Of a stretch of 64,000 nucleotides of DNA, positions 13,286 to 54,659 are shown piece by piece (within the stretch, counting starts at the first letter, position 1; each line of letters opens with the position of its first letter). Where the stretch lies: NCBI RefSeq assembly GCF_058153355.1, contig NZ_CM177019.1; one strand, 5' to 3'. Below the pieces are notes generated by a model. That model worked only from the letters and a program-made list of their open reading frames with translations, had not been told where the DNA came from and searched no databases. A program made the position numbers and the translations under genes.

Positions 13286-13310
13286 TTTGATCCCTGCACT
13301 ATGAATTAGC

Positions 13311-13342
13311 AAAACCCTCTGTTACTACAGAGGGTTTTTTAT
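13311..13342. terminator. Intrinsic terminator between convergent guaA and yfgI
   Basis: Stem ccctctgt/acagaggg with a 4-nt loop, followed by tttttt and preceded by aaaa. Confidence 0.75.
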
Positions 13343-13378
13343 ACTCACGAATCATAGGATTGAAGTTACTGACATCGC

Positions 13379-13918
13379 TTAGTTAAACCAGCTGTCCGAT
13401 TTGTTCTCTTCTGCTTTGCCCACGCTTTTCATCAGATCGCGACCGCCTTCAGTCATATTCCTGTTTGCGTCAGCTTCAGATTGCACCACATCGGTTTGCG
13501 CAGCTTTGTGCTTCAGTTCCTGATCGATAAATTCGTTTTCTCGCTTAACGCGGGCTTCTTCTTTCGCCAGCGCCAGTTTTTGTTTCTGAATCTCTAAGCT
13601 GCGTAGCTCATCTTCATAACTTTGATCGCGTTTCTTGTCCGCAGTGGCTTCGGCGTCCAGTTTATCCTGACGAGCTTTCTTATTCGCCGCTGCCGTTGCC
13701 GCTCTTTTATTAGCCGCGGCCTGGGCGTTTGCGCGACGTTGCTTCTCTTGCTGGATTTCCCTGTTGCGCTCCGCGACCCATTCGTCATGCTGCCTTTGCT
13801 CTTCATTTTTACCTTGCTGTTCCGCTTCTGCGACAGCAGAGAGTTGATCCTGCAATGATGAGGCGATAGCCGGATAGCTTAAGGAGGCTAAGATGGCGCA
13901 AAGAAAAACTTTCTTCAT
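13379..13918 (-). CDS. yfgI: Uncharacterised secreted protein YfgI
   Basis: 179-aa ORF with signal peptide (MKKVFLCAILASLSYPAIA) and a charged, coiled-coil-like body; position matches K-12 yfgI. Confidence 0.8.
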   Translation of the reverse strand: MKKVFLCAILASLSYPAIASSLQDQLSAVAEAEQQGKNEEQRQHDEWVAERNREIQQEKQRRANAQAAANKRAATAAANKKARQDKLDAEATADKKRDQSYEDELRSLEIQKQKLALAKEEARVKRENEFIDQELKHKAAQTDVVQSEADANRNMTEGGRDLMKSVGKAEENKSDSWFN

Positions 13919-13933
13919 GACTCCTCCTGATTA

Positions 13934-14452
13934 TTAGCTCTTTTCAGGACATTTGGTATTTGGCTGAATACGCGTTTCGTTATACGTCGTGGTAATAACA
14001 ACGGCTAAACCTGTCGTAAACTGGCACTCTTTACCCACCTGGGTGGAGGTATACACTTTGGTGCCTTCCTTATACGTTAGAGAAACACCTTCCACTAAGG
14101 TTTTATCATTCACCATAGAACCTGCTGCCGCGCCAACAGCTCCGCCGCCAACTGCACCTGCCGTCGTTCCGGAATTGCTGCCAGACCCCACGTTGTGGCC
14201 GATAACACCGCCAGCGACTGCACCAATAAGCGCGCCGAAGGCTTGTGCGTTTCGTTTATTTTGGGAGTTGTCTACGGCAACTTTTGCGGGAAGAATGGAA
14301 ATAATATTAACGGTTTTAGTTTCTTGTTTGGTATTCAGTTGATCGGTTTGATAAACATCGGCGGCATGATCATCAGCATTTGACTGGCATCCTGCCAGAG
14401 TGAATGACGCTAACATTGCCACAGGTAGAAGACATTTTTTAAATTTCATCAC
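13934..14452 (-). CDS. yfgH: Outer-membrane lipoprotein YfgH (glycine-zipper)
   Basis: 172-aa ORF with a lipobox (LAGC) and a Gly-rich zipper (GALIGAVAGGVIGHNVG). Confidence 0.8.
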   Translation of the reverse strand: MMKFKKCLLPVAMLASFTLAGCQSNADDHAADVYQTDQLNTKQETKTVNIISILPAKVAVDNSQNKRNAQAFGALIGAVAGGVIGHNVGSGSNSGTTAGAVGGGAVGAAAGSMVNDKTLVEGVSLTYKEGTKVYTSTQVGKECQFTTGLAVVITTTYNETRIQPNTKCPEKS

Positions 14453-14762
14453 TATTCCTTGTTATACACATTACGAAAAATAAGACATTTAAGATCATCA
14501 AAAGAGGAAAGTAAATGTATTGCGTATAAAGGAATAGATTAAATTTATTAAAATTCATGTGGAAAATAATTTATAAAAATACATCATTAAAACATATGTA
14601 TTAATTTTATATTTATTTCGCAGCCAAACAGGATAAACATCAGTCAGGACAAAGACGTAAAATTTAAGATGAAAGAATATCTGCCGCTTTGATAATCCCA
14701 AAGAGCAAAAGCATCCGACAGCGAGGTGCCGTTATGTTCTGTGAAAGTGGAGAAGGTAACCG

Positions 14763-14954
14763 CTAACGTTGTACCGGTGATTCGACGGAGAGTGTGGATT
14801 GCTGAGCTTCTTTTTTGCTCTGATGGTGCTGCCATGCACCGACGGACGAGTAGATAAAACGGCCAAAGAAGAAGATAAAGCTGATGAGCAGTACGATACG
14901 GGTCATGCGACTGTTAAATCGGTGTCGTTTTCGCATACTGGTTGCCTGACTCAC
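14763..14954 (-). CDS. yfgG: Small membrane protein YfgG
   Basis: 63-aa ORF at the K-12 yfgG position, in an AT-rich intergenic tract, with one hydrophobic segment. Confidence 0.6.
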   Translation of the reverse strand: MSQATSMRKRHRFNSRMTRIVLLISFIFFFGRFIYSSVGAWQHHQSKKEAQQSTLSVESPVQR

Positions 14955-15305
14955 AAAAGGTTCCTTGAAGTATGTCCCACGCCGTGGACGGTACTTACAT
15001 TAAGGCACAACAGGACAAAATGGTCAATTCTTCGTTATGTAAAAAAGCGTCAGTGGATACATATTTTAATGTTATGGAAGTTAATTTAATTATTTACAAT
15101 GATGATGTAATAATGATGAATTAACATGATAAACGTAATAATTCATTAATCAGGGGTATTTTGTTTGATATATATCAATTGGAACTTTCATATGACACTT
15201 AGAATCAATGCTCTCTATAGTGATGAATAATCATCATTCGAAGTCAGGTGGGATGCCTGTCTGAATACACCTCCTTCAGGATGTGGGGGATTCTGCTGAG
15301 CATCT

Positions 15306-17549
15306 ATGAAACTGAATGCAACCTATATAAAAATACGTGATAAATGGTGGGGGCTTCCGCTGTTCCTGCCTTCTTTAATCTTGCCCATTTTCGCCCATAT
15401 TAATACTTTCGCGCATATTTCTTCCGGTGAGGTTTTTCTCTTTTACCTGCCTTTGGCACTGATGATCAGCATGATGATGTTTTTCAGCTGGGCGGCATTG
15501 CCAGGGATCGCCTTAGGGATTTTTGTCCGCAAATATTCAGAGCTGGGTTTTTACGAAACGCTCTCATTAACAGCTAATTTTATTATCATTATCATTCTCT
15601 GTTGGGGCGGTTACAGGGTCTTTACTCCCCGGCGTAACAACGTTTCACATGGTGATACCCGTTTAATTTCCCAGCGTATATTCTGGCAGATTGTGTTTCC
15701 TGCAACGCTGTTTCTGATACTTTTCCAGTTTGCCGCATTTGTAGGGTTACTGGCGAGTAGAGAAAATCTGGTCGGCGTCATGCCTTTTAACCTCGGGACC
15801 TTAATCAATTATCAGGCCTTACTGGTGGGCAATCTGATTGGTGTTCCGCTGTGCTACTTCATCATTCGGGTGGTGCGAAATCCGTTTTATTTACGCAGCT
15901 ATTATTCGCAATTAAAACAGCAAGTTGATGTGAAAGTCACCAAAAAAGAGTTCGCGCTCTGGCTACTGGCATTAGGTGCGTTGTTGTTGCTGTTATGCAT
16001 GCCGTTAAATGAAAAAAGCACGATTTTCAGCACCAATTATACCTTGTCATTATTGCTACCCCTGATGATGTGGGGAGCCATGCGCTATGGTTATAAGTTG
16101 ATTTCGCTGCTCTGGGCGGTCGTGCTGATGATCAGCATCCACAGCTATCAAAATTACATTCCCATTTATCCTGGCTATACCACGCAACTGACCATAACCT
16201 CCTCCAGTTATCTGGTATTCTCTTTTATTGTCAATTATATGGCTGTACTGGCAACCCGTCAGCGAGCGGTAGTCAGACGCATTCAGCGGCTTGCGTATGT
16301 GGACCCGGTGGTTCATCTGCCAAATGTTCGCGCCCTGAATCGCGCGTTGCGTGATGCCCCCTGGTCTGCGCTTTGTTATTTACGCATCCCCGGCATGGAA
16401 ATGCTGGTTAAGAACTATGGCATCATGCTACGGATTCAATACAAGCAAAAACTTTCTCACTGGCTGTCACCATTGCTGGAACCGGGTGAAGATGTTTATC
16501 AGCTTTCGGGTAACGATCTCGCGCTGCGACTGAATACAGAATCGCACCAGGAGCGCATTACCGCACTGGATAGCCATCTCAAGCAATTTCGTTTCTTTTG
16601 GGATGGAATGCCGATGCAACCGCAGATTGGCGTCAGTTACTGCTATGTACGCTCGCCGGTGAATCATATCTACCTGCTGCTGGGAGAGCTAAATACGGTT
16701 GCTGAACTCTCCATCGTGACCAACGCTCCAGAAAATATGCAGCGCCGCGGGGCTATGTATTTACAACGTGAATTGAAAGATAAAGTCGCGATGATGAATC
16801 GGCTACAGCAGGCATTGGAGCATAACCATTTTTTCCTGATGGCCCAGCCGATTACCGGTATGCGTGGTGATGTCTACCATGAAATTCTTCTGCGCATGAA
16901 AGGTGATAATGATGAACTGATCAGCCCCGACAGCTTCTTGCCGGTCGCGCACGAATTTGGTTTATCGTCGAGTATCGACATGTGGGTCATTGAGCATACG
17001 CTGCAATTTATGGCTGAAAACAGAGCGAAGATGCCCGCTCACCGTTTTGCGATTAATCTGTCGCCAACCTCGGTATGTCAGGCTCGTTTTCCCGTTGAAG
17101 TCAGTCAGCTGCTGGCTAAATATCAAATTGAAGCGTGGCAACTTATTTTTGAAGTCACCGAAAGTAATGCTCTGACCAATGTTAAGCAGGCGCAGATCAC
17201 CTTGCAGCATCTTCAGGAATTAGGCTGCCAGATTGCGATTGATGATTTCGGAACCGGCTACGCCAGCTATGCACGGCTTAAAAATGTGAATGCCGATCTG
17301 CTTAAAATTGACGGCAGTTTTATCCGCAATATTGTGTCAAATAGTCTGGATTATCAGATAGTGGCGTCGATTTGCCACCTGGCGCGAATGAAGAAAATGC
17401 TGGTAGTGGCAGAGTACGTTGAAAACGAAGAGATCCGCGAGGCGGTGCTCTCTTTGGGGATCGATTATATGCAGGGTTATCTTATTGGTAAGCCGCAACC
17501 GTTAATTGATACGCTGAATGAAATCGAACCCATTCGCGAAAGTGCCTGA
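15306..17549 (+). CDS. pdeF: Cyclic-di-GMP phosphodiesterase PdeF (YfgF): MASE1, degenerate GGDEF and EAL domains
   Basis: 747-aa ORF with a multi-TM N-terminus and a C-terminal EAL domain (EVTES.., DDFGTGYAS). Confidence 0.88.
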   Translation: MKLNATYIKIRDKWWGLPLFLPSLILPIFAHINTFAHISSGEVFLFYLPLALMISMMMFFSWAALPGIALGIFVRKYSELGFYETLSLTANFIIIIILCWGGYRVFTPRRNNVSHGDTRLISQRIFWQIVFPATLFLILFQFAAFVGLLASRENLVGVMPFNLGTLINYQALLVGNLIGVPLCYFIIRVVRNPFYLRSYYSQLKQQVDVKVTKKEFALWLLALGALLLLLCMPLNEKSTIFSTNYTLSLLLPLMMWGAMRYGYKLISLLWAVVLMISIHSYQNYIPIYPGYTTQLTITSSSYLVFSFIVNYMAVLATRQRAVVRRIQRLAYVDPVVHLPNVRALNRALRDAPWSALCYLRIPGMEMLVKNYGIMLRIQYKQKLSHWLSPLLEPGEDVYQLSGNDLALRLNTESHQERITALDSHLKQFRFFWDGMPMQPQIGVSYCYVRSPVNHIYLLLGELNTVAELSIVTNAPENMQRRGAMYLQRELKDKVAMMNRLQQALEHNHFFLMAQPITGMRGDVYHEILLRMKGDNDELISPDSFLPVAHEFGLSSSIDMWVIEHTLQFMAENRAKMPAHRFAINLSPTSVCQARFPVEVSQLLAKYQIEAWQLIFEVTESNALTNVKQAQITLQHLQELGCQIAIDDFGTGYASYARLKNVNADLLKIDGSFIRNIVSNSLDYQIVASICHLARMKKMLVVAEYVENEEIREAVLSLGIDYMQGYLIGKPQPLIDTLNEIEPIRESA

Positions 17550-17554
17550 ATAAT

Positions 17555-17581
17555 GCGGGCCGACATTTCTTGTCGGCCCGC
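17555..17581. terminator. GC-rich hairpin between convergent pdeF and ppx
   Basis: Stem gcgggccgaca/tgtcggcccgc with a 6-nt loop; no strong U-tract. Confidence 0.45.
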
Positions 17582-17587
17582 AAAGCA

Positions 17588-21200
<3,613 letters not shown>

Positions 21201-53922: not shown

Positions 53923-54297
<375 letters not shown>

Positions 54298-54659
54298 TTA
54301 TGAGAATAAATACTCATTTAAGGGTGAAAACATTTTGCCTGCAAATGATTATCAAGAAATATAACATTATCGAAGTATTCAAATTAACAACTATTAAATA
54401 ATATTAAACATTTTTAACGTAAACATTAAGAATATTCATCTTGTTATCTGTCTGTATTTTAACCAGAATTAAATAAGTATTAGATGCCGTATGAATATCT
54501 CGAAATGTTGCTGTGTATCACATACAAATCATCACCGCAGGACCATAGTATTTACATAAGGTTTGTCCCCCGGAGGTAGTCATCGCAGCAATCGAGTAAA
54601 TTAGCTTCACCACGGTATATTGTTTCCGTAGAATACCCATAATTATAAGAGAGGTTGTT

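Follow-up and report, generated by a model that had tools for sequence, protein, structure and literature searches.

Two AT-rich promoter regions flanking yfgG in Escherichia coli and the FNR-controlled promoter of pdeF

The DNA between yfgH and pdeF in Escherichia coli, at positions 14453-15305 of the 64,000-nucleotide stretch analysed here (the window; contig NZ_CM177019.1 of NCBI RefSeq assembly GCF_058153355.1), was found to contain two short AT-rich promoter regions that flanked yfgG and were ordinary and already explained. Very probably, three E. coli transcription units had their promoter DNA in this tract, with H-NS bound to it and pdeF under the control of FNR. The base composition, the FNR box, the promoter hexamers with their spacing, and the conservation of these elements were observed in the sequence itself. 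The FNR dependence, the H-NS occupancy and the yfgG transcription start site (TSS) of the tract had already been published and were hence known. As a finding the tract matters little: raw sequence recovered a known promoter region. It is also a tidy case of an oxygen-sensing activator that works at a c-di-GMP gene in opposition to silencing by nucleoid proteins.

The window was part of the E. coli chromosome and carried guaA (plus strand), yfgI, yfgH and yfgG (minus strand), pdeF, also called yfgF (plus strand), and ppx (minus strand). The annotated genes in and around the tract were the following.

13379-13918, minus strand: yfgI
13934-14452, minus strand: yfgH
14763-14954, minus strand: yfgG, 63 codons, DUF2633, 49% GC
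14972-15124, plus strand: PGAP "hypothetical protein" WP_000017552.1, 50 codons, probably not a gene
15306-17549, plus strand: pdeF/yfgF

The names and coordinates of yfgH, yfgG and pdeF in the original prediction, including the 63 codons of yfgG, were correct according to RefSeq and K-12, whose annotations of the locus were in agreement. A 1.5-kb query of the tract found matches of 95-100% identity, with the same annotations, in 5,424 of the 5,426 complete E. coli genomes, the pdeF protein was 99.6% identical to the K-12 protein over its full length, and at the yfgF promoter locus the strain of the window differed from K-12 by few substitutions and in nothing essential. Published coordinates were converted with w = 14954 + (2629290 - x), where x was the K-12 coordinate in U00096.3 and w the position in the window; U00096.2 coordinates were those of U00096.3 minus 1,977, as confirmed with a published FNR-site coordinate. 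A role of yfgG in nickel/cobalt tolerance has been reported from Dub-seq (PMC6338753). That the tract held only yfgG matched the K-12 annotation, in which the additional ORF called by PGAP was missing. This ORF, probably spurious, was located on the strand opposite to the yfgG promoter and overlapped it. Its start or frame was gone in Escherichia sp. E1V33, Citrobacter and Salmonella, an intact frame being confined to Escherichia, and we rejected it as a gene.

The GC content of the tract was 36.3% compared with 52.3% for the 64-kb window, about 4.6 standard deviations under the mean, and no 853-bp stretch of the 64 kb had less GC than the one that started at 14397 (35.2% GC), 56 bases before the tract. 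The claim of about 850 bp of markedly AT-rich DNA was right in that the low GC content was real and far beyond chance; however, the tract was bipartite, and the extreme composition was limited to about 350 bp.

14453-14640, no strand: AT core 1, the upstream region of yfgH(I); 188 bp, 21.8% GC, 78% AT
14641-14762, minus strand: yfgG 3' flank; 43% GC, ordinary composition
14731 to 14716, minus strand: weak terminator-like hairpin in the yfgG 3' flank
15040-15200, no strand: AT core 2, between the divergent yfgG and pdeF; 161 bp, 23.6% GC, 76% AT

The interval 15200-15399, which spanned the pdeF leader, had 43% GC. Cores 1 and 2 were the first- and third-lowest-GC 200-bp stretches in the 64 kb, and there was one comparably AT-rich site elsewhere in the window, at about 54284. 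The long A/T runs that had been noticed were confirmed, since all three of the window's longest uninterrupted A/T runs (18, 19 and 20 nt) were located in core 1, at 14538-14618; homopolymer runs of A or T in the tract did not exceed 6 nt. In both cores the AT content was well above the genome mean over at least 100 bp, as is expected of H-NS-bound DNA. A search for repeats and tandem repeats gave no sign of a mobile element, and a permissive Rfam scan of 13300-15900 returned one chance lncRNA match (E = 0.83).

For comparison between species, loci were gathered by PdeF protein similarity from 16 species-level genomes of Escherichia, Citrobacter and Salmonella, and five more distant homologs, including those of Enterobacter soli, C. 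rodentium and E. fergusonii, were added to this set. In every locus with an upstream region, yfgG and pdeF were divergent and about 350 bp apart (415 bp in Salmonella), and the 100-bp GC minimum of the spacer was 0.20-0.38 in all genera examined. The yfgG-pdeF pair, its promoters and the AT-rich spacer were syntenic with ppx-ppk and were kept across at least five genera. Therefore, core 2 was considered to be old core-genome DNA. The following elements were found on its yfgG side.

14955-14992, minus strand: yfgG 5' UTR, with the Shine-Dalgarno sequence AAGGAA at 14966 to 14961 and a 5' stem-loop at 14974-14989
14999-15027, minus strand: yfgG promoter, with the -35 hexamer TTGACC at 15027 to 15022, a 17-bp spacer and the -10 hexamer CTTAAT at 15004 to 14999
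15037-15044: ATGTAAAA, a conserved island of core 2 upstream of the yfgG -35 hexamer
15047-15053: GCGTCAG, a second such island
15070-15075: TGTTAT, a third such island

The three islands were invariant, with no factor assigned to them. The -35 and -10 hexamers of yfgG were invariant in 20 loci from five genera, and the 5' stem of its leader covaried in the alignment (GTCC/GGAC in Escherichia, GCCC/GGGC in Citrobacter and Salmonella). This promoter was named in Shimada 2014, and its TSS was reported, together with a sigmaS ChIP-seq region, at 2627275 of U00096.2, which corresponds to 14992 in the window (PMC4447067). Additionally, a sigma70 ChIP-seq peak with a height of 11,933 was located on it at 2627279, or 14988 in the window (Myers 2013, PMC3688515). 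No convincing candidate for a yfgH promoter was identified upstream of yfgH.

The pdeF side of the spacer contained a complete FNR-dependent promoter.

15165-15178, plus strand: FNR box TTGATATATATCAA, perfect consensus
15200-15205, plus strand: pdeF -10 hexamer TAGAAT, 21 bp past the FNR box
15212-15213, plus strand: inferred pdeF TSS, computed from spacing

The box matched TTGAT-N4-ATCAA at 14 of 14 positions and was the sole perfect match in 64 kb. The spacing between its end at 15178 and the start of TAGAAT at 15200 placed the TSS at 15212-15213 and the centre of the box at -40.5 to -41.5. As summarized in PMC3718329, which cites Lacey 2010, the yfgF promoter is a class II FNR promoter with the box at -41.5 and the -10 hexamer TAGAAT; according to the same summary and the RegulonDB curation, yfgF expression is maximal anaerobically and depends on FNR. 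The box at 15165-15178 and its TAGAAT are this published promoter. Across genera, the box was kept as TTGA(T/C)N4(A/G)TCAA at the same distance to pdeF in all 19 loci with an upstream region, and the -10 hexamer was kept as TAnAAT at fixed spacing in Escherichia, Citrobacter, Salmonella and Enterobacter. In wild-type cells, an FNR ChIP-chip/ChIP-seq peak at 2627100-2627146 was located on the box (Myers 2013, Tables S5, S6 and S9, PMC3688515); Tables S5 and S6 gave the predicted site as bound, and Table S9 listed no FNR-dependent change of yfgF expression in the wild type in glucose minimal medium. It had been suggested that the tract may carry the anaerobic control region of pdeF, and the perfect box, the published class II site and the ChIP-seq peak bore this out for core 2 only. 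Our literature search found no paper in which pdeF, under its new gene name, was linked with FNR. Two other candidates in this part of the spacer were rejected: a sigma70 promoter picked by a consensus scan (ATGACA-18-TATAGT, 15192-15221) was conserved nowhere outside Escherichia, and a NarL heptamer at 15152-15158 was not conserved even within Escherichia.

Occupancy of the tract by FNR, H-NS, sigma70 and sigmaS is documented in the literature, and so is an effect of the Δhns ΔstpA deletions. The H-NS ChIP-chip region in anaerobic cells was 2626274-2628408 of U00096.2, or 13859-15993 in the window, and in aerobic cells it extended over 4.5 kb, at 2624400-2628963 or 13304-17867 (Myers 2013, Table S3, PMC3688515). 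By our coordinate mapping, both regions contained the entire tract. Moreover, the yfgF/yfgG spacer carried SELEX sites for both H-NS and the RpoD holoenzyme (Shimada 2014). Thus, the description of the tract as nucleoid-protein-bound agreed with binding both in cells and in SELEX. The absence of both nucleoid-protein occupancy and promoter activity was to count against the original prediction; published occupancy and promoters contradicted this outcome, and the idea was therefore not refuted.

In the Δhns ΔstpA mutant, the average of the FNR peak rose from 0.35 in the wild type to 1.68, a significant increase of about 5-fold (Myers Table S7, PMC3688515), and yfgF was placed, with a +O2/-O2 ratio of 0.23, among the genes that were regulated by O2 only in this mutant (Table S11 of the same paper). 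This ratio corresponded to a 4.3-fold anaerobic induction, seen in Δhns ΔstpA only; the effects of the two deletions on yfgF could be indirect. Table S6 of Myers 2013 (PMC3688515) gave "None" for nucleoid-protein overlap at the yfgF FNR site, which conflicts with the H-NS region of Table S3 that spans the same site. This entry and the coarse resolution of ChIP-chip were counted against our main explanation. The pdeF mRNA of strain CFT073 was more abundant at 37 °C than at 23 °C, as is often seen for H-NS targets; this fits H-NS control of pdeF and is no proof of it. With respect to other proteins, an IHF region mapped to 15755-16034, inside pdeF and outside the tract, core 2 was an in vitro SELEX target of PgrR, and a weak in vitro SELEX peak of FlhDC mapped to about 14633, at the edge of core 1 and the yfgG 3' flank. 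The literature search returned nothing on Fis at the tract.

The most probable arrangement would then be as follows. Core 1 is the upstream region of yfgHI, and core 2 belongs to a divergent control region of about 350 bp, with a strong sigma70/sigmaS promoter of yfgG (TSS 14992) directed leftward and the class II FNR-activated promoter of pdeF directed rightward. Both AT cores would be the binding substrate for H-NS (and StpA), presumably its nucleation sites, within an in vivo H-NS domain of 2-4.5 kb that extends from yfgI into pdeF. The yfgG promoter, located between the cores, is strongly occupied by RNA polymerase in spite of this domain; because the very strong sigma70 peak on it lay inside the domain, the latter was not uniformly silencing. 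Without oxygen, [4Fe-4S]-FNR would bind the box near -41.5 and recruit RNA polymerase to pdeF. Competition of H-NS and StpA with FNR would keep FNR occupancy low and pdeF nearly silent in glucose minimal medium, and the removal of both proteins would lift this near-silence. We infer that H-NS acted directly at the pdeF promoter and that its competition with FNR was direct. That FNR is bound here but has no effect as long as H-NS and StpA are present is apparently a point without previous discussion for pdeF.

Several other readings of the AT-richness were considered. It is possible, if rather doubtful, that it marked horizontally acquired and xenogeneically silenced DNA, with the yfgHI module and core 1, and perhaps pdeF, forming an H-NS-coated islet. 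In accordance with such an origin, the only loci in which yfgHI and the AT-rich upstream region adjoined yfgG were those of Escherichia, E. fergusonii among them, and of a single C. amalonaticus strain, in which the composition of core 1 was maintained and its sequence was not; in other Citrobacter, Salmonella and Enterobacter, yfgG had guaA, a gene for an oxidoreductase, other unrelated genes or genes of prophage lysis next to it. This patchy distribution looked like that of a module of the kind typically coated by H-NS. A paper from 2024 described SdiA-regulated yfgHI orthologs in S. Typhi (srgIL) that are absent from S. Typhimurium; the same paper found that an E. coli yfgHI fusion was not regulated by SdiA. 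The GC content of yfgH (46.8%) and pdeF (46.7%), lower than the 52.3% of the window, and the 4.5-kb extent of the aerobic H-NS region would also suit an acquired islet. However, the conservation of yfgG, pdeF, their promoters and the AT-rich spacer in at least five genera, in synteny with ppx-ppk, argues against it. Since core 2 appeared to be old core-genome DNA, acquisition would fit only core 1 and yfgHI, where it complements the explanation by H-NS-bound promoter DNA.

It is improbable that the composition was merely that of ordinary intergenic promoter DNA under a mutational AT bias, with a passive H-NS signal that had no regulatory role. Such a bias would agree with the strictly intergenic location of both cores, the normal composition of the coding DNA between them, and the middle of core 1, whose sequence drifted freely among Escherichia species while its composition was maintained. 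The motif searches were also in line with it: consensus scans for H-NS, IHF, Fis, ArcA, CRP, NarL, Fur, NikR, RcnR and CpxR gave weak, AT-biased or non-conserved matches only, those for H-NS, Fis, IHF and ArcA being uninformative, and in the promoter/terminator consensus scan, which missed the FNR-dependent promoter, promoter-like sites were no commoner than in shuffles. On the other hand, the GC ranks of the two cores were approached at only one other locus of the 64 kb, the removal of H-NS and StpA altered FNR occupancy and the O2-response of yfgF, and core 2 contained many islands that were invariant across genera. It is very unlikely that intrinsic curvature, and not AT content as such, drove protein binding and promoter function. 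Our estimate of curvature, made with a wedge model, was a rough one. It gave a single peak above the 99th percentile of the window, at 14488 in core 1 (17.4° per turn), and a slight rise of the mean, 7.2° per turn in the tract compared with 5.8° in the window. However, ten places in the window were predicted to be more curved than this peak, core 2 had no peak, and the A-tracts of the tract were short and without obvious phasing. In the original prediction, which was otherwise supported, the mention of curved DNA was the weak point. The high-affinity motif of H-NS (TCGATAAATT-like) was matched only with two mismatches, at 14542 and 14568, and these weak matches and the modest predicted curvature were counted against our main explanation as well.

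The only forward-looking lead from the tract was the leader of pdeF, in which a control element acting at the RNA level appeared plausible on the basis of its sequence.

15213-15305, plus strand: pdeF 5' leader
15219-15238, plus strand: leader hairpin
15243-15264, plus strand: invariant 22-nt block GTCAGGTGGGATGCCTGTCTGA
15272-15290, plus strand: stem-loop UCCUUCA[GGAUG]UGGGGGA

No other part of the intergenic region was as well conserved as the 22-nt block, which was neither AT-rich nor the FNR box. It was identical in 13 of the 14 protein-selected loci and invariant from Escherichia to Salmonella, nearly so in Enterobacter, and it varied slightly in the distant loci around the core C[A/G]GGU[G/U]GGAU[G/A]CCUGU. 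Among the 5,407 E. coli genomes with a match, 5,402 had at least 99% identity to the block region across 33 nt; with 5,409 places in all of these genomes, the block was practically a single-copy sequence. A metagenome scan gave 52 matches, 45 in pdeF leaders and 7 in unrelated contexts, where about 7 chance matches were estimated for a pattern of this length. When the block was folded on itself, 94.7% of cells were paired; in an alternative pairing of its GGAUGC with GCAUCU directly before the start codon, the value was 98.4%. RNAalifold and pair counts were compatible with both candidate helices and showed no covariation in them, because the columns hardly varied. The stem-loop at 15272-15290 was present in 21 of 21 sequences, always with GGA in the loop, and its stems changed in a compensatory manner (CCUACA/UGUGGG versus CCUGCA/UGCGGG; AACCUUC/GAAGGUU); shuffles rarely equalled it (0-25 of 300 per sequence). 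A single-sequence fold of the leader was no more stable than shuffles (z = -0.32). The mini-ORF ATG-CCT-GTC-TGA and longer uORFs ending in ..SGGMPV were rejected as peptide-coding, since their starts, stops and N-termini were not conserved and the nucleotides were invariant even at third positions.

Two hairpins with GGA in their loops are a hallmark of CsrA targets. In all 21 sequences, both the CAGG/CCUG hairpin of the block and the covarying stem-loop presented a GGA in their loops, which gave the two or more GGA motifs expected of such targets. A GGA overlapping the Shine-Dalgarno sequence or the start codon was not found: the nearest was at 15279-15281, 25 nt before the AUG, and the sequence directly before the AUG, GAGCAUCU, was without GGA. 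The leader loop of E. coli, CAGGAUGU, resembles the repeat of CsrB and the SELEX core. Tentatively, the block and the covarying GGA stem-loop may constitute a previously undescribed element of post-transcriptional control beyond FNR and H-NS. It is conceivable, with similar reservations, that the pdeF leader is a two-site CsrA target that would link Csr to an anaerobic c-di-GMP phosphodiesterase. In a looser reading, the leader may be an RNA switch with two alternative states, the block being folded on itself in one and paired with the six bases directly before the start codon in the other. The available parts of the CsrA CLIP supplements of Potts 2017 had no entry for yfgF or pdeF; if those cultures were aerobic, pdeF would have been barely expressed in them. 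Our literature search found no paper on control of yfgF or pdeF by its mRNA leader. If real, the element would add a translational layer to c-di-GMP turnover of E. coli on entering anaerobiosis.

Four known systems can be compared with this locus. Jonas and co-workers are said to have described, in 2008, the binding of CsrA to the mRNA leaders of the c-di-GMP genes ycdT/dgcT and ydeH/dgcZ. The pdeF leader would be similar to them in having two GGA in hairpin loops before the start codon; unlike them, it had no GGA over an obvious Shine-Dalgarno sequence. With the class II FNR promoter of yfgF in E. coli K-12, as represented in the summary of Lacey, Partridge & Green 2010, the promoter of the window shared the locus, the box and the -10 hexamer. 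The csgD/csgB spacer, which bears the same HNS mark in Shimada 2014, was likewise divergent and of "type-A", had SELEX sites for RNA polymerase and H-NS, and was bordered on one side, as is the yfgG/pdeF spacer, by a gene linked to stress or to sigmaS. However, the yfgG/pdeF spacer was much shorter (351 bp) and, in contrast to csgD/csgB, had direct evidence of binding in cells for two regulators only, FNR and H-NS.

The remaining comparison is with the FNR sites that are masked or damped by H-NS and StpA (Myers 2013: hlyE, ttdR; "Category 7"). The box of pdeF, at an activating position, was likewise located inside an H-NS ChIP region, and, as at the "Category 7" sites, FNR occupancy increased and an O2-response was present in Δhns ΔstpA. 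In Myers 2013, yfgF was grouped in Table S9 with the peaks that had no accompanying change of expression, and it was not discussed. Unlike at the fully masked sites of that study, the FNR peak of yfgF was already visible in the wild type, and for this reason we consider the yfgF site to be damped rather than fully masked.

The 5' leader of pdeF contained the 22-nt block with the strongest conservation in the intergenic region, and the following features were identified in it:

15243-15264, plus strand: 22-nt block GTCAGGTGGGATGCCTGTCTGA
15272-15290, plus strand: stem-loop with GGA in its loop

The block was unchanged throughout Escherichia, Citrobacter, and Salmonella and almost unchanged in Enterobacter according to the leader alignment, and among the homologous upstream regions it was better conserved than the FNR box. 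It was present in approximately one copy per E. coli genome (5,409 places in 5,407 genomes). Two pairings were possible for this block, namely formation of its own hairpin or pairing with the 6 nt preceding the pdeF AUG, and the leader alignment contained no covariation for either of them.

A human gut metagenome contig (L057) had the E. coli pdeF leader and approximately the first 7 codons followed by unrelated sequence; the probable cause of this change just within pdeF was either an inserted element or a break in the assembly. In E. coli CP53 (locus L076), an IS5 element was located in place of yfgH, yfgG, both AT-rich cores, and the FNR box, and the replaced part corresponded to 13938-15197 of the window. 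The end of the IS5 adjoined TTAGAATC; therefore, the -10 element of pdeF was retained and its upstream control was exchanged. At least 80% of the region was absent in 65 of the 5,424 genomes. The left neighbor of yfgG varied by genus (comparison loci L009-L017 and L071-L075), being guaA with nothing in between, a molybdo-oxidoreductase with a TAT signal, a LysR regulator, prophage holin/lysozyme genes, or yfgHI. Judging by sequence comparison, the 3' side of yfgG is a variable insertion point.

On the opposite side of yfgG, three further features were located:

14974-14989, minus strand: stem-loop GUCCACGGCGUGGGAC, beginning 3 nt into the yfgG mRNA
15037-15075: invariant islands ATGTAAAA, GCGTCAG, and TGTTAT, upstream of the yfgG -35 element
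14972-15124, plus strand: 50-aa hypothetical protein WP_000017552.1, annotated by PGAP antisense to the yfgG promoter

The islands occupied positions -45 to -83 relative to the yfgG transcription start. In the alignment, the stem of the minus-strand stem-loop covaried across genera (GTCC/GGAC versus GCCC/GGGC), and this structure may serve as a 5' stabilizing hairpin of the mRNA. It was not favored in the single-sequence fold. According to Table S12 of Myers 2013 (PMC3688515), the yfgG level was 2.2-fold higher anaerobically in wild type, and the nik nickel-uptake operon was likewise higher. This joint rise fits the role of yfgG in nickel/cobalt tolerance (PMC6338753). The start or the frame of WP_000017552.1 was not kept beyond E. 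coli and its close relatives, and thus it was probably an annotation artefact rather than a gene.

In Table S3 of Myers 2013 (PMC3688515), an H-NS region covered the FNR site at K-12 position 2627088 (15165-15178 in the window). However, Table S6 gave the nucleoid-protein overlap at this site as none, reflecting either a local dip of the signal or a differing threshold. The only other stretch of the 64-kb window with a similar AT-richness was located at ~54284-54500, with 22.5% GC over 200 bp and a 17-nt A/T run at 54392.

The GGA stem-loop was found in all 21 of the 21 homologous pdeF leaders; its stems varied, and the changes were compensatory. No evidence of CsrA binding to the pdeF (yfgF) leader was found in the CsrA CLIP supplements (Potts 2017). 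At the level of sequence, the stem-loop together with the 22-nt block resembled a two-site CsrA target.
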